In this document: in pieces, positions 43,631-53,273 of the stretch
How positions within the stretch are numbered: the stretch's first letter is position 1
How the letters are laid out: every line of letters begins with the position of its first letter
Assembly (NCBI GenBank): GCA_046759445.1
Contig: JBHICG010000006.1
Span: forward strand, 36,945-100,944
DNA from: Candidatus Scalinduaceae bacterium
GTDB taxonomy: Bacteria > Planctomycetota > Brocadiia > Brocadiales > Scalinduaceae
Length of the DNA: 64,000 bases
Direction of reading: 5' to 3'
The notes under the pieces: model-generated
Database searches by the model: none
What the model was told of the DNA's origin: nothing
Seen by the model: the letters and a program-made list of their open reading frames with translations, nothing else
Translations under genes and position numbers: made by a program

Positions 43631-44740
43631 TTGAAAATTTCAGGTAATAATGTGGAAGTTGGTGCATATGTATATCCGGGATGGCATTCCAGTCCCGAAC
43701 GAGACCGCCATTTCCCCCCGGGTTGGAGTGAATGGGACCTTGTCTTGAGTGCACCTTCCCGTTTTCCCAACCACAATCAACCGCGGCTGCCCGTTGATGG
43801 GCCCTACGATGATTCAGTTCCCTCTGCCTCACAGAAACAGGTTGGGCTTGCCAGTGAGTACGGTGTGGATTTCTTCGTGTACGGTTTTTTCTGGTCAAGG
43901 GGAAAGCGCGTATTTGAGGCTGCCCTGGATAGAGGTTTTCTGGGCTGTAACGGTGGAGAAAATTTCCCCTTTGCCTTAATGTGGGCAAACCGTATGCCCC
44001 GTGGAGTCATTCCCGTAAAACACAAACCCGGTCCTAACATTGATCCCGGCAGGCTCGTGTACACCGATCCGGATGATTTTTTGGAATTGATAAAATATCT
44101 TGAGGAAAGGTATTTTTCAAGATCAAACTACCTTCGCATAGGCGATATGCCCCTGCTTTCTATCTTTGACAGTACCTTTTTCTTCCGGCAGTTGGGAGTA
44201 GGACTGGCGTCCCTGGCAATCCACAAGGTTAAAGACTACCTTATTAAAAAGGGATATCCCGGTCTGCATCTGATGGCCCTTAATCCGGCGCCTGCTATGA
44301 TTGCCGAGTTCAAGAGGTCTGGGTTTGACAGCATAAGCCATTACGTCTGGCTTCCTGACTGGAAGGGTAAGTACAAGCAGGACTATGGAGAACTGATCAA
44401 TAAACGAAGCAGCGAATGGGAATCTTTTGCTAGTAAGTCAGGGCTTACGTATTTTCCATCGGTATCACCCGGGTGGGACGCCACACCACGAGCTGCCGCA
44501 AACGGTTACCATAATCCTAACCGTTATCCCTGGTGGCCTGTTGTGGTGAACGAGGACCCGGCGCTCTTTTCAGATTTTCTTGGTCGGGCAATCCGATACA
44601 CAAAGAAACACAACAAACCCCAACTCTCCTTCATAGCGTCATGGAACGAGTGGAGTGAGGGACATTATCTGGAACCAGACGAACGCTTTGGCAATGCGTG
44701 GCTCAAGGCAGTTAGGAAGGAGAAGCAATATGCCATCTGA
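43631..44740 (+). CDS. Glycoside hydrolase family 99-like / WbsX-like protein
   Basis: AYVYPGWH, GWSEW, YGVDFF, FALMWAN, SPGWDATPR, ASWNEWSEGHYLEPD. Confidence 0.85.
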   Translation: MKISGNNVEVGAYVYPGWHSSPERDRHFPPGWSEWDLVLSAPSRFPNHNQPRLPVDGPYDDSVPSASQKQVGLASEYGVDFFVYGFFWSRGKRVFEAALDRGFLGCNGGENFPFALMWANRMPRGVIPVKHKPGPNIDPGRLVYTDPDDFLELIKYLEERYFSRSNYLRIGDMPLLSIFDSTFFFRQLGVGLASLAIHKVKDYLIKKGYPGLHLMALNPAPAMIAEFKRSGFDSISHYVWLPDWKGKYKQDYGELINKRSSEWESFASKSGLTYFPSVSPGWDATPRAAANGYHNPNRYPWWPVVVNEDPALFSDFLGRAIRYTKKHNKPQLSFIASWNEWSEGHYLEPDERFGNAWLKAVRKEKQYAI

Positions 44741-45674
44741 CTGGACGTTTGTATCTGTGGACATGGAACTTACCAACCGATGTAGTAGTGATTGTCTCAT
44801 GTGTCCGCGCTATGCCATAAACCGTCAGAAAGGCATAATGTCAGAAGATGTATTCAAAGTGATTATGGAGAAACTAGTCGATGAGGGAAGCCTTGTTACG
44901 TTTTCTGGTATGGGTGATCCATTATCACATCCTAAGGTGTTCGAATGGATTTATGACATTCGTCATAAGGGTGGCGACGCAGGAATCGTCGTAAATCCTG
45001 CATCATTAAATGATAATATTTCACGTAAACTTGTAGAGGCCAAGCCAAATTCCATTACACTTTCCTTTCCAAGTGTGAGAAAAGAAGTATTTGAGAGGTT
45101 ATGTCCAAAGACATCTTTTGACGATGCCTTGGAAAGAGCCCAAAAACTTAACAGTCTTACCATTGGAAATGTTGGTCTGAGAGTGGTGGGCTTAATTACG
45201 GAGATCAACGAGGACGAACCAGGTGAATATCTCAATTTCTGGAAAAACCTTGGTGTTCCTTCCAGTATGATCATGTGTCATGGTAGGGGTGGAAACCTGA
45301 AGATACCAGGCATATACGATCGGAAATCAGTTGGACTTAAATCTGGAAGGTGTGGGCTCTTCCAGTTTCACACATTCATTACCTGGGAAGGTGAGGTGCT
45401 TGCATGCTGTCATGACCTGACCGGGGATACACTAATCGGGAGTTTAGCAGATGATGATATTTCTGTTGTTGCCGAAAGGAAACAGGAAATTGCGGAAGGT
45501 TTTATGCCTTTTACGGTCTGCCAACAATGTGATGAGCCACTTAGACAGTACTCCCTTACTCAAGGTTTACCACCGGAAGGTCGGAAAGAACGAAACCGTT
45601 TTTTCCGTTCAATCAGCCTGAAAAAAAGTTCTTTATCAGATGCTCATGAAACTACTCAACCACGAGTTGTGTAA
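44730..45674 (+). CDS. Radical SAM protein with SPASM/twitch domain
   Basis: ELTNRCSSDCLMCPR (CxxxCxxC), GMGDPL, C...ITWEGEVLACCHD...CQQC; start ATG 44730 after AGGAG. Confidence 0.88.
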   Translation: MPSDWTFVSVDMELTNRCSSDCLMCPRYAINRQKGIMSEDVFKVIMEKLVDEGSLVTFSGMGDPLSHPKVFEWIYDIRHKGGDAGIVVNPASLNDNISRKLVEAKPNSITLSFPSVRKEVFERLCPKTSFDDALERAQKLNSLTIGNVGLRVVGLITEINEDEPGEYLNFWKNLGVPSSMIMCHGRGGNLKIPGIYDRKSVGLKSGRCGLFQFHTFITWEGEVLACCHDLTGDTLIGSLADDDISVVAERKQEIAEGFMPFTVCQQCDEPLRQYSLTQGLPPEGRKERNRFFRSISLKKSSLSDAHETTQPRVV

Positions 45675-49672: not shown

Positions 49673-50047
49673 TTGATTAATATGAAAACTGATAAAAGCA
49701 GAAGGATTGACAGGAATGAAGAGAAAAACCCAAAAGGGGAAAGTACAATCGACATAACTAACGTACTGCCTTGCAGAGTGAATGGTATTAAAGAGTACAA
49801 TTTATCTGACGAGACTGTGCTTTACTTTATGGAGAATGAGACAGTGCACTCACTCAATTGCTCAGCAAAGGCGATATGGGAAATATGTGATGGTAGCCTT
49901 AACATTGTTGAGATCAGTCAGATACTTGGTAAACGTTTCGGTTGTTCTGGAACAGAGCTGCTTCCAGATGTGAAAACAGCCGTTACCAAACTTCAAAAAC
50001 TTTCTCTTCTGGAGTTGAAGAATGCCCCTCGTAAAAAGTCGATTTGA
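49673..50047 (+). CDS. PqqD-family / RiPP recognition element protein
   Basis: DETVLY...VHSLN.SAKAIWEICDG...EI...L...F......L..DV...V..L....LL. Confidence 0.88.
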   Translation: MINMKTDKSRRIDRNEEKNPKGESTIDITNVLPCRVNGIKEYNLSDETVLYFMENETVHSLNCSAKAIWEICDGSLNIVEISQILGKRFGCSGTELLPDVKTAVTKLQKLSLLELKNAPRKKSI

Positions 50048-50888
50048 TGATGGAGGAGAAATGGTGGTGATGGCTCAGAAAACTTTGTACGTTGCGTTTA
50101 AGGGTCATCAAGTGGCCGTTTGCTCAAACATCCCTGAGGTAATTGAATTGATCGAGCGTAGTTTTAGCAAAATGTTAGAATCTGAGTCCACGAGAATTGT
50201 AGGGCGGTTGGAAGTTTTCACTGAAGGTGAGAAGTATCACTTAGTAGGGAACATTACAGCCAGTGAAGAGTACAGATCACTGGGCGATATTTTGGATAAT
50301 ATCCATAAGGAAGTGATTTACCAACTGATTCAAGCAAACCCTGAACTTTTGTGGTTGCATGCAGGAGCTGCTGCCTATCAAGATTGTGCAGTGGTGTTTC
50401 CTGGGGCTTGGGGGCGAGGCAAGAGTACCATTGTTACAAGTCTTTGCGAAAACGGCTGGTCTTATTTGTCTGATGATATTGTTCCTATTGACCTGAATTC
50501 GGGTAAGGTTATTCCTTTTTTTAGGACTCCAACTATACGAAAGAATTCGGGACAAAAAATGTCTTTATCTAGTCTCGAAGAATTGCAAAAGTTAGAAATT
50601 GACCTCAAACAGAATAGATTGTGTCGAGAGCCTATGCCGATTAGTGGTATAATATTCCCTTTTTATAGCCATGGCTCTTCAGCCAGGTTAGTACCATATT
50701 CTCCTGCTGTTGCTACGCTGGAATTACTTGGAAGTTGTATGAATTATGAGAACCATCGAGAGGGGGCGGTGCGCCAACTTTGCAATTTGGTAAAGAACCT
50801 AGCTGTCTCGCGACTATATTATAGCATTGGTGAACAGGCAGCTGAGCTAATAGGTAGTAGTACCCACGAAAAGTGGTATTGTGTTTAA
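50022..50888 (+). CDS. HPr kinase-related P-loop kinase
   Basis: WLHAGAA...PGAWGRGKST...GWSYLSDD. Confidence 0.82.
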   Translation: MPLVKSRFDDGGEMVVMAQKTLYVAFKGHQVAVCSNIPEVIELIERSFSKMLESESTRIVGRLEVFTEGEKYHLVGNITASEEYRSLGDILDNIHKEVIYQLIQANPELLWLHAGAAAYQDCAVVFPGAWGRGKSTIVTSLCENGWSYLSDDIVPIDLNSGKVIPFFRTPTIRKNSGQKMSLSSLEELQKLEIDLKQNRLCREPMPISGIIFPFYSHGSSARLVPYSPAVATLELLGSCMNYENHREGAVRQLCNLVKNLAVSRLYYSIGEQAAELIGSSTHEKWYCV

Positions 50889-50939
50889 CTGGGGATAGGG
50901 TCCGTATGTATTTTAATAAAGCCCGAAAGGAGGATTAGT

Positions 50940-51145
50940 ATGAATAGTGACAATAGTAAAAAAATGATCAAGAAATATCGCTTACAAAACGTGCATTAAT
51001 AAAGGCAGGATGGGCAGTCCCTGTTATCTTATCGATCGGGCTGCCTGTCGGCGATGTTTTCGTACATGCCAGTGGCAACGGCCATGGTCGTCATGGCGTA
51101 GGTCGTGGCAGAGATCATGGCAGAGGTGGCGGTCTGCTTAAATAA
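50940..51145 (+). CDS. Putative precursor peptide (68 aa), split by a 1-nt frameshift in an A7 run
   Basis: SD GGAGG then ATG 50940; adding one A at 50958-50964 gives MNSDNSKKNDQEISLTKRALIKAGWAVPVILSIGLPVGDVFVHASGNGHGRHGVGRGRDHGRGGGLLK*. Confidence 0.65.
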
Positions 51146-51308
51146 CGTAGAACGAGCCACGAAGAACACTTTGTATTTCGGGTGCTGATTATCTGTTGCG
51201 GACCCTATTTCTGGCTTTCCTATCTTAATCTCATTTTGACGGCCACAGCAAAATTAACTTGGTGCGGAAAGTCATGGGACTCTCGTATTGAGAAATCCTG
51301 TTTTTTCT

Positions 51309-51826
51309 AGTTACATCTGTATATGCCCAGTAATTAAGTAACTCTTTTGGTATAATAAATCTCATACCAAAGGAGGGCTTAATGCAATATTCACAAAAAG
51401 TTATTATAAAACGATGGATACCTATTTTAAAGGAATATGAACTAACTAAAGCAAAGGTAAATCCACGTCCATTTAAATTTGTTAAGTACCTTTGTCAGGC
51501 ACATAGCATATCAAAGAAAGAACCTGACCGTTATTATGGCAAATGGATTGAAGGTAACAAGCAACCAGAATCACTCACACCCAATAAACTAGGTCCAAAA
51601 CTAGAAGCAAGAAGAACTCCAAGGTATATAGAACGAAATATTATTAAGACATATTGTCGATTAGGATCTAATCTATACGAGATTGTGCTTCTATTTAAGC
51701 CCCATTATATGGATAAAACACCAACCCCGACCACAGTGGACAAGATAAAGCGCACTTTCTAACCTATGTTACTTTTACGTAAATCTGAAATCGATTTTCA
51801 TATTTGTTTTGAAGTTAAATGTAACT
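51309..51826 (+). mobile_element. Truncated IS481-like element (transposase N-terminus 51382-51762, no DDE core)
   Basis: YYGKW...L.P.K.GPK...RRTP..IE...YEI...TP..TTV..I..R resembles IS481 N-termini; short IR AGTTACAT and ATGTAACT. Confidence 0.6.
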
Positions 51827-52007
51827 GGTAACTCCTGATAGAGAGTCGATAAGGAAATTAGAATGCCTTGTATGAGTGCTCTACAAAGGAGAAATCTTTT
51901 TAGAAAAAAAAGTCGAAGAGACTAAAATCTATAAGATGGCCTATTACTTTCTGGAGAGAAAAGAACAAGCTAGGAAAAAAGATATAATATAATCTTAAGT
52001 TTTTAAT

Positions 52008-53273
52008 ATGAATTTATCTACTGAAAATACGCTTTTACTTTACTGTGTTCAGACCAGAATTACTAAAGATACGTTGGATTATATTAAAGGACTTCAGAGT
52101 CTTTCATTGGATTGGGAAGAGGTATTAAGGTTTGCTTTTTCGAATGATATCGCTCCACTGCTATATCACAATTTGAAAAAAATCCAGGAGAGCCATTTTA
52201 TACCCCAAGAAGTTGTGGATAGGCTAAGAAAAGCCTACTATGGGAATTTGGCCAAGAACATGTACATTTATGGGGAATTAAAGAGGATTTTGGATGTATT
52301 TCGTGAAGAAGAAATAGAAGTTATTGTCCTAAAAGGCGCATCCTTAGCTGAAACTGTCTATGGCAATGTTGGTTTAAGATGTATGAATGACATTGATCTT
52401 TTGGTAAAGAAAGAAGTCTTGGATAGATCAGACGAACTAATGGCTGAATTAGGCTATATTTCAGATGAAAGTCGGCACTCCAAAGACTGGTACAGAAAAA
52501 ATCATCGTCATTTAGCACCTTTCCTCAGTCAAGATAACAAGATTAAAATAGAAATACATCATGATATCATCCCCCCCGAAAATCCTTTCCGTATAGATAT
52601 TCGTAAATCATGGGACAGGGCACAGAGTAATGTAATAGGAGATATTAATACCCTTGTGTTGTCTCCTGAAGATTTGATAGTTCATTTATGTCTTCATTCT
52701 TTTTATTTACAGCCTTTGAAGAAGGGTTTAAGGAACCTAGTAGACATCTCTCAAGTTGTGAGATTTTATGGAGAACGCATCAATTGGGATCGGATAATAA
52801 GAGAAGCCCATGAGGGCAACTTTACGAATTTTATCTATTATCCCTTATGTTTAGCAAGAGACATATTGGGAATGGAGGTAAGAAGGGAGATTTTTGATGC
52901 TCTTAAGACCGGATCTAATATAGGGCTTTTTGAGGACTACCTGCTAGGGCAAATTACCAAAAAAAATGTTCTTTTGAGGGACCATTCTTCATCTATTATT
53001 ATTCCTGATAACCAACGGCTTCGTCACACACTATGCAAGGAACTTTTACGTGAGACTCATGTCCGCAATAAGTTAAGATCTTTATTGAAGATAATTTTCC
53101 TGCCGCGTACTGAGTCAAGCGAAAAAAGCTCCCAAACATCGATTCAAAAATTATCTTGCTTTTTTTGCCTTGTCCTTCATATCTCGAAGCTTATTTTCAA
53201 GTTATGTTACTGTTCTAGTAAAAGCATGATTAAGTGTATTTTTCATAAAACGGTCGTAAAATTAGCTCGCTAG
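52008..53273 (+). CDS. Uncharacterised nucleotidyltransferase (NTP_transf_5 family)
   Basis: VIVLKGASLA..VYG..GLR.MNDIDLLV, LGY, IEIHH, LSPED..VHLCLH, LVDI. Confidence 0.88.
   Translation: MNLSTENTLLLYCVQTRITKDTLDYIKGLQSLSLDWEEVLRFAFSNDIAPLLYHNLKKIQESHFIPQEVVDRLRKAYYGNLAKNMYIYGELKRILDVFREEEIEVIVLKGASLAETVYGNVGLRCMNDIDLLVKKEVLDRSDELMAELGYISDESRHSKDWYRKNHRHLAPFLSQDNKIKIEIHHDIIPPENPFRIDIRKSWDRAQSNVIGDINTLVLSPEDLIVHLCLHSFYLQPLKKGLRNLVDISQVVRFYGERINWDRIIREAHEGNFTNFIYYPLCLARDILGMEVRREIFDALKTGSNIGLFEDYLLGQITKKNVLLRDHSSSIIIPDNQRLRHTLCKELLRETHVRNKLRSLLKIIFLPRTESSEKSSQTSIQKLSCFFCLVLHISKLIFKLCYCSSKSMIKCIFHKTVVKLAR

Follow-up and report, generated by a model that had tools for sequence, protein, structure and literature searches.

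Can a peptide be decorated by an HprK-like kinase and an NTP_transf_5 nucleotidyltransferase, enzymes known from phosphorylated lasso peptide clusters, where no lasso cyclase is adjacent? The question is raised by a locus at positions 49,673 to 53,273 of a 64,000-nucleotide stretch of DNA from a Candidatus Scalinduaceae bacterium (assembly GCA_046759445.1, contig JBHICG010000006.1, positions 36,945 to 100,944; the whole stretch is hereafter the window). The locus encodes a PqqD-like recognition element (RRE) of the kind found in pathways for peptides that are made on ribosomes and modified after translation (RiPPs), together with a kinase, a hidden precursor peptide, and a nucleotidyltransferase. 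An original prediction, made from the letters of the window, took it for a different peptide-modification system. Our answer, held with fair confidence, is that it derives from a cyclase-less family resembling the systems for linear polyphosphorylated peptides (LPPs; lppA-K-B-S-D-N), here called type A, and that the copy in this genome is broken and chimeric.

The cyclase-less module across bacteria

Searches with a 66-sequence kinase alignment yielded 80 loci in genomes (out of 96 confirmed) and another 80 in metagenomes (out of 146); the kinase subfamily considered here comprises 56 loci (L063–L118; E 1e-19 or better), and the other 24 were examined separately. Thirty-one of the 56 are well flanked (at least 4 kb on each side). 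Among these, with co-occurrence counted within 6 kb, an RRE gene is present in 30, a nucleotidyltransferase gene in 25, a peptide gene in 24, a radical S-adenosylmethionine (SAM) enzyme gene in nine, a B2 leader-peptidase gene in one, and an AsnB/cyclase-like gene in one, the last at a locus without a peptide. All four genes (RRE, kinase, peptide, and nucleotidyltransferase) occur at 20 of the 31 well-flanked loci, 12 of them without a radical SAM gene, and at 22 of the 56 subfamily loci, in nine named phyla and two unranked records; gene order differs among loci. Neighbors were called as longest open reading frames (ORFs), a procedure that can miss genes in high-GC loci. A module of PqqD, HprK-like, and NTP_transf_5 genes without a cyclase, for which the original prediction had proposed a neighborhood search, recurs across phyla.

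Among the 176 further ORFs neighboring the kinase in 26 peptide-bearing loci, Pfam models picked up neither Asn_synthase nor S24/S26 peptidase nor ABC transporter domains (the last scanned at E 1e-9 or 1e-12). PF10502 had no match within 100 kb of the locus in any of 20 genomes, nor near the window's locus; S26 peptidases are encoded away from the locus in 19 of the 20, with no match in the remaining one. B2 counts were taken from the Pfam search because a narrow B2 profile missed a probable B2 gene at L072. The kinase profile itself matched 343 clusters at 50% identity (E 1e-30 or better). Fifteen of the best 150 kinase representatives are RRE–kinase fusions, and six of the best 150 kinases are fused to glycosyltransferase-like or 2-oxoglutarate oxygenase domains, with O-FucT scores under the cut-off. 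The recurring module and the RRE–kinase fusions support a different peptide-modification system at the level of the family, and not as an intact working unit in the window. A cyclase or protease at every homologous locus, the expectation that would have refuted the original prediction, is not what the kinase subfamily shows; it is borne out in part for the window's nucleotidyltransferase, whose nearest homologs follow a B2 gene in 6 of 6 loci examined and which is itself preceded by a B2 remnant.

A third trio of RRE, kinase, and nucleotidyltransferase genes was observed at L223–L227 and L233, and 15 of the 20 genus g2 genomes contain a related kinase match; the sequence patterns applied found a precursor for it only in L225. 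Leader-bearing peptide genes also occur away from the kinase (G365:C281, C192, and C274; G363:C9) and may be substrates in trans.

The nearest described counterpart is the LPP system. As set out in the main text of Popov et al. (2026; PMC13381572), LPP loci combine an RRE, an HprK kinase, a nucleotidyltransferase, a SipW-like peptidase, and an MsbA-like pump, with no cyclase; Ser3 of LppA is polyphosphorylated, and LPPs are described as restricted to Bacillota. A cyclase-less system of RRE, kinase, and nucleotidyltransferase is therefore not unprecedented, contrary to what the original prediction implied. The present family shares with LPPs a stand-alone RRE, an HprK-like kinase, a nucleotidyltransferase, the lack of a macrolactam cyclase, a conserved leader with [Y/W]xxP before a highly variable core, and a Ser just past the cleavage site (Ser3 in LppA); both kinases find their best match in TIGR04352, with which LppK is also annotated. 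However, three defining features fail: neither the SipW-like peptidase nor the MsbA-like pump (or any other ABC transporter) has a counterpart among the 176 neighbors, and the LPP leader consensus, YxxPxVLxHQxIxFETxxS, differs from the RR...GWxxP, hydrophobic stretch, and A-x-A found here. For this reason the module was not filed as LPP. The hosts differ as well, LPPs belonging to Bacillota and the present loci to nine mostly diderm phyla. The whole words "Tat," "twin," and "arginine" are absent from the main text of PMC13381572, and no description of the twin-arginine form was found in the searchable literature, within which bioRxiv supplements and most subscription papers do not fall; the variant appears undescribed in that literature.

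Two further systems invite comparison. According to PMC8498205, paeninodin and pseudomycoidin loci carry an RRE, an HPr-kinase homolog, and a nucleotidyltransferase, and paeninodin leaders use WxxP; W/Y/LxxP are described as recognition motifs in PMC12710340. Phosphorylated lasso peptides need a cyclase C, a protease B2, and an ABC exporter, and are modified on a C-terminal Ser (PMC8498205), whereas here the candidate site lies at the start of the core, no cyclase is adjacent, and only the decayed half of a B2 gene is present. The pairing of a PqqD-like gene with an HprK-related kinase also recalls the HPr-rel-A system of NCBIfam (TIGR04352 kinase, TIGR04353 PqqD chaperone), whose models are the best family matches, though both window proteins score under the respective cut-offs (74.6 of 200 bits and 15.3 of 35 bits).

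Leader, candidate site, and core

Precursors of the family are 55–350 residues long and share a leader of the form (S/T)RRxLIxAGWxxP, followed by an uncharged hydrophobic stretch, A-x-A, and a hypervariable core; the full leader consensus is TRRALIxAGWxxPxVLAxxLPxxAxA. The arginine pair is present in 54 of 57 leaders, the other three having KR. A leader profile found 40 places in 36 genomes, 36 of them beside the kinase (the profile was built from those loci). In 48 of 54 peptides, at least one of the four residues that open the core is Ser or Tyr, as compared with 21.0 ± 3.3 in shuffles, none of 2000 of which reach the observed count; the figure is weakened by cleavage sites placed by our own rule, the dropping of 3 of 57 peptides, and the non-independence of related sequences. 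Within the same four residues, Ser is found in 31 peptides (17.4 expected) and Tyr in 20 (4.4 expected).

The pathway that we favor starts from this precursor, whose (S/T)RR-x-L-I-x-A-G-W-x-x-P leader, hydrophobic stretch, A-x-A, and hypervariable core can be read directly from the genes. The RRE would bind WxxP and present the peptide to the kinase, as the invariant WxxP, the LPP and paeninodin structures, and the RRE–kinase fusions suggest. The kinase would then phosphorylate or polyphosphorylate Ser, Thr, or Tyr one to four residues past the cleavage site, where enrichment is observed and where the reaction is modeled on that of LppK at Ser3. The nucleotidyltransferase may place a sugar or nucleotide-derived group on the phosphate, by analogy with pseudomycoidin, although LppN gave no visible product. 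Last, and weakest among these steps, the twin-arginine leader would direct the peptide to the twin-arginine translocation (Tat) pathway and a housekeeping signal peptidase would cleave it, in place of LppS and LppD; the genome behind the window encodes TatC and one S26 peptidase. The sequences themselves show the gene content, the motifs, the placement of Ser and Tyr, the fusions, and the lesions, whereas binding, phosphorylation, further decoration by NTP_transf_5, and Tat export are what we infer for the family.

Several observations weigh against this scheme. As reported in the main text of PMC13381572, neither S3T nor S3Y variants were phosphorylated by LppK, and deletion of lppN had no detectable effect. 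Many cores of the present family start with Tyr or Thr, and no nucleotidyltransferase gene lies within 6 kb in 4 of the 24 well-flanked peptide-bearing loci. As regards export, Pfam TAT_signal matches 1 of 49 leaders (E 0.2), and several cyanobacterial precursors have long N-terminal domains that place RR more than 100 residues into the ORF. These last two points would also fit a twin-arginine segment that belongs to the recognition handle or tethers the peptide to the membrane, with the phosphopeptide remaining in the cytoplasm or at the inner membrane or being cut by another protease, as would the invariance of W and P in 49 leaders, stricter than that of the Tat-type positions, and the KR of the window itself. 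We consider this alternative improbable: 48 of 57 leaders satisfy a TATFIND-like rule (the window copy, with KR, fails it), the distance to a small-x-Ala site is almost constant (W+16 in 38 of 54), the loci lack a conserved exporter or peptidase, and the genome behind the window encodes TatC. Export through the peptide's own leader, as the original prediction had suggested, has support for the family insofar as the leader resembles an export signal; the window copy has KR and is frameshifted.

A ~150-residue N-terminal domain before the twin-arginine leader is shared by three of the cyanobacterial precursors (L065 7359–7937, L077 166–1059, and L080 7641–8264).

Cores range from 8 to more than 300 low-complexity residues and have no conserved ring-forming Asp or Glu. 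At loci with a radical SAM gene, 10 of 11 cores contain at least 29% His+Asp, as compared with 0 of 23 at loci without one (threshold set afterwards); three of three independent pairs agree (p 0.25), and the link is not statistically established. His-x-Asp repeats, up to 57 in number, are found at L065, L070, L088, L094, L095, L104, L110, L111, L116, L118, and L154, with a radical SAM/SPASM enzyme that reaches none of the NCBIfam cut-offs and an unnamed partner, at most ~530 residues long, that has weak methyltransferase matches. Pro-rich cores (L092, L102, L103, and L177) occur with genes for prolyl-hydroxylase-like, HPAT-like (hydroxyproline O-arabinosyltransferase), and N-acetylglucosamine-transferase proteins; kinase–oxygenase fusions (P0182, P0192, and P0258) are listed with the Pro-rich set. 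A broader reading, which we put forward tentatively and as somewhat short of probable, is that of a modular, export-coupled platform in which one leader would act as both RRE handle and Tat signal, the kinase/nucleotidyltransferase pair would mark the new N-terminus, and plug-in enzymes would follow the core.

The locus in the Scalinduaceae genome

The genome behind the window (3.6 Mb, 97% complete) shows the following features at the locus:

49673–50047, + strand: PqqD/RRE gene (PF05402)
50022–50888, + strand: HprK-type kinase gene (best NCBIfam match TIGR04352)
50928–51145, + strand: precursor-peptide pseudogene (ribosome-binding site, ATG, leader frame, and family hidden Markov model [HMM])
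51313–51762, + strand: truncated insertion-sequence (IS) scrap (repeated end of ~45 bp and a 126-residue ORF resembling helix-turn-helix [HTH] and transposase proteins)
51772–51968, + strand: decayed 3' half of a B2-like (PF13471-type, transglutaminase-type) leader-peptidase gene (DNA identity and six-protein B2 profile)
52008–53273, + strand: NTP_transf_5 nucleotidyltransferase gene (PF14907)

The four co-oriented genes of the original prediction are real, and the small peptide gene does lie between the kinase and nucleotidyltransferase genes, behind AGGAGG, with leader and core in the other frame. As had also been noted, no cyclase or ABC exporter is present among the ORFs adjoining the locus. 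Its statement that no B2 protease is adjacent does not stand, since the decayed 3' half of such a gene is present; nor are the peptide and nucleotidyltransferase genes contiguous, the transposase-like ORF and its repeated end separating the peptide from the B2 remnant. A promoter and terminator scan returned nothing useful.

The RRE matches PF05402 at 34.1 bits (cut-off 23.4) over residues 47–113; it is discrete and PqqD-like, with a short N-terminal extension and a probable start at ATG 49682. The profile of its subfamily hits structures of PqqD and lasso B1, among them 9X8Z ("PqqD family protein"), and it shares 63–67% identity with the RRE domains found in L026, L143, and L144. The 288-residue kinase has no Pfam match and scores under the TIGR04352 cut-off as given above; H113, the GxGKST P-loop (131–136), and D151 are invariant among 66 kinase homologs, and these motifs align with those of Coxiella HPr kinase (E 0.014). 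Its AlphaFold model (pLDDT 90.8) matches phosphoenolpyruvate carboxykinase (PEPCK) and HprK in Foldseek, and by its predicted structure the kinase is of the PEPCK/HprK fold, in a distinct subfamily. The ratio of nonsynonymous to synonymous substitution is 0.29–0.32 against L143–L145 and 0.23–0.32 among L143–L145 themselves; judged by these ratios, the kinase is intact and under purifying selection. This kinase is found in neither of two same-genus genomes, and the kinase subfamily in 2 of 28 genomes of the family. One close homolog of the kinase is assigned to Candidatus Scalindua by its source, and the host is probably an anammox bacterium related to Scalindua.

In DNA, the B2 remnant shares 65–68% identity with the B2 genes at L027, L028, and L029 (68% over 185 nt to the intact L027 gene), and it is the sole match under E 0.3 to the six-protein B2 profile among 73,699 genome frames (E 5e-7); its reading frame is shifted and interrupted by an internal stop, and the catalytic GHAW motif has lost its His. 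The intact nucleotidyltransferase (PF14907, 218 bits) keeps the invariant D128, D130, H184, and D246, and is 33–40% identical to enzymes linked to B2, as compared with 27% to the enzyme of L026. In all six loci examined (L027–L032), its nearest homologs follow a B2 gene, in the order kinase, optional GNAT, radical SAM/SPASM enzyme, RRE, B2, and nucleotidyltransferase, with a different short precursor; we term this arrangement type B. L026, by comparison, has RRE, kinase, intact peptide, and nucleotidyltransferase without B2. L143 and L144 share ~80% DNA identity with the window over the RRE, kinase, and leader, a similarity that stops at 51070, and the L144 peptide leads into the start of an L026-type nucleotidyltransferase gene (84% over 92 nt), again without B2. 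At the junction, the end of the IS scrap recurs at seven other places in the genome and also at contig ends in relatives; the 126-residue ORF has no Pfam match, and its Atlas look-alikes are HTH/transposase proteins (scores 0.90–0.92, a lead only).

In phylogenetic analysis, the window's nucleotidyltransferase and the type B clade come out as sisters with FastTree (79 rows; 0.996), as do the window's enzyme and the B2-linked clade with IQ-TREE (26 rows, with 10 left out, including the long branches L001 and L104; 100/99); a mixture model with L104 and L225 restored (28 rows) gives the sister placement 82/99, and in a 36-row tree the gene is unplaced. Two results tell against a type B origin, in that approximately unbiased (AU) tests do not reject a pairing with L026 (p 0.11 and 0.13) and a search of this genome turned up nothing else of a type B cassette. 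Taken together, synteny and trees favor a chimera in which a type A front meets a type B tail at the IS, and the nucleotidyltransferase gene most likely came, on this comparative evidence, from a type B (radical SAM/B2) cassette. An IS-associated rearrangement would have removed the native nucleotidyltransferase gene and joined the type B tail, comprising the B2 remnant and its nucleotidyltransferase gene. Alternatively, the locus could be a single ancestral cluster in decay, whose B2 acted on this peptide. The co-orientation of the B2 remnant within the locus would agree with this, as would type A locus L096, in which a B2 gene lies 2.4 kb from the kinase, and the branching of the window's nucleotidyltransferase outside rather than inside the B2-linked clade. 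However, the closest relatives with downstream flank (L144 and L026) pass from the peptide to a different nucleotidyltransferase with no B2, the B2-linked cassettes have a kinase, radical SAM enzyme, and RRE of their own and a different precursor, and an IS scrap sits at the junction; we therefore regard a single decayed cluster as unlikely.

The precursor gene in this chimeric copy is itself broken. An AGGAGG (50928–50933) precedes ATG 50940, the frame of which ends at a stop after 19 codons, and leader and core continue in the frame 50960–51145, one base being missing at or just past the A7 run at 50958–50964. The downstream frame matches the family HMM (E 1e-11) and contains KR (50987–50992), WxxP (51011–51022), the hydrophobic stretch, a predicted cleavage site near VHA, and a conserved Ser (51071–51073) before a 24-residue Gly/His/Arg tail; no NCBIfam model matched this frame at E 0.1, nor seven precursors at E 1e-8. 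All 13 closest homologs are intact, with RR where the window has KR, a common leader, and a Ser or Thr that corresponds in position to the Ser of the window. Their cores are hypervariable, which removes support for the importance that had been given to the Gly/His/Arg core. In this subfamily the cut could lie directly ahead of the Ser or two positions closer to the leader; in the latter case the window's Ser would be Ser3, as in LppA.

Contigs of runs X1, X2, and X4 in Logan span the frameshift site without difference (X1 and X2 are possibly the source samples, X4 has a depth of 2.6, and contigs hide rare variants), and L143 and L144, both of them intact relatives, share this A7 run with one base more. 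The frameshift is therefore probably a real deletion rather than a homopolymer error, and an assembly error as its cause is not supported by either comparison. As written, the peptide is not expressible, judged by its reading frames. It might still be made by slippage or −1 frameshifting at A7, with the locus active and the borrowed nucleotidyltransferase acting on the product; the position of the break at an A7 run, the purifying selection on the kinase, and the retention of all invariant residues by the nucleotidyltransferase would be in keeping with this. Yet all 13 close homologs are plainly in frame, the relatives carry the same A7 with one more base, the first Arg is missing from the window leader as well, a length variant appears in none of the runs (contigs drop rare variants), and the genome has no second copy of the window leader, so that continued expression seems very unlikely. 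Short contigs of RNA run X3 are identical to parts of the kinase, the peptide, and the IS scrap (51572–51785); they are not taken as evidence of expression, because contigs cannot show transcription. With a frameshifted precursor and an IS-joined tail that most likely is of type B, the locus has probably ceased to yield a modified peptide.

That these genes serve a lasso pathway with its cyclase and B2 elsewhere in the genome seems extremely unlikely: RRE, HprK, and NTP_transf_5 are indeed the paeninodin/pseudomycoidin tailoring set, some PF13471 match lies elsewhere in 17 of 29 peptide-bearing genomes, and the window's genome has at least eight full-length Asn_synthase genes (lasso-cyclase identity not examined), but PF13471 falls inside the locus in 1 of the 29, has no match in 12 of them (mostly incomplete metagenome-assembled genomes) or in the window's genome, and the low-complexity cores, from 8 to over 300 residues, lack a conserved ring-forming residue.

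Neighboring genes and related loci add the following. A radical SAM gene at 44655–45674 lies 4 kb upstream, beside a WbsX glycosyltransferase gene; it was considered as a member of the locus and rejected, being of another family and separated by unrelated genes. The two genes overlap (43631–45674; WbsX-type glycosyltransferase and radical SAM/SPASM) in a patch of higher GC (47%). Type B cassettes (L027–L032, L120, L126, L128, L212, L221, and L222) lack a cyclase and encode a precursor of 55–70 residues whose leader is lasso-like and whose short end is rich in Phe (GFFG-S/T/P-F-S/T-P type); in several loci the cassette sits behind large secreted proteins. A second related locus in the same genome (L001 9377–13369; G000:C20), beside polysaccharide export genes, comprises a 59-residue twin-arginine peptide with a YxxP leader and a Cys-containing core, a radical SAM/SPASM–RRE fusion, a kinase that is divided between two frames, and an NTP_transf_5 gene in convergent orientation. 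A stand-alone PqqD-like gene (L002 7591–7902; G000:C48) lies upstream of JAB-protease and RND efflux genes.

Implications for the family

The window's locus is a poor exemplar of its family, as its peptide is a pseudogene and its nucleotidyltransferase probably evolved with a different precursor; the intact loci L026, L063, and L086 are better ones, and short natural precursor/enzyme pairs make the question of LppN function testable. If the family works as we propose, LPP-type chemistry would extend from Bacillota to at least nine other phyla, and two long-orphan families, the HprK-related kinases and NTP_transf_5, would gain substrates. A RiPP leader would double as a Tat signal, and no dedicated protease or pump would therefore be needed. 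That one leader stands before unrelated cores of 8 to more than 300 residues suggests a very tolerant, engineerable tag for modification and export. Should the platform reading hold as well, these loci would define a class of Tat-exported phospho(glyco)peptides, with extensin-like products of bacteria and metal-binding products among its members.

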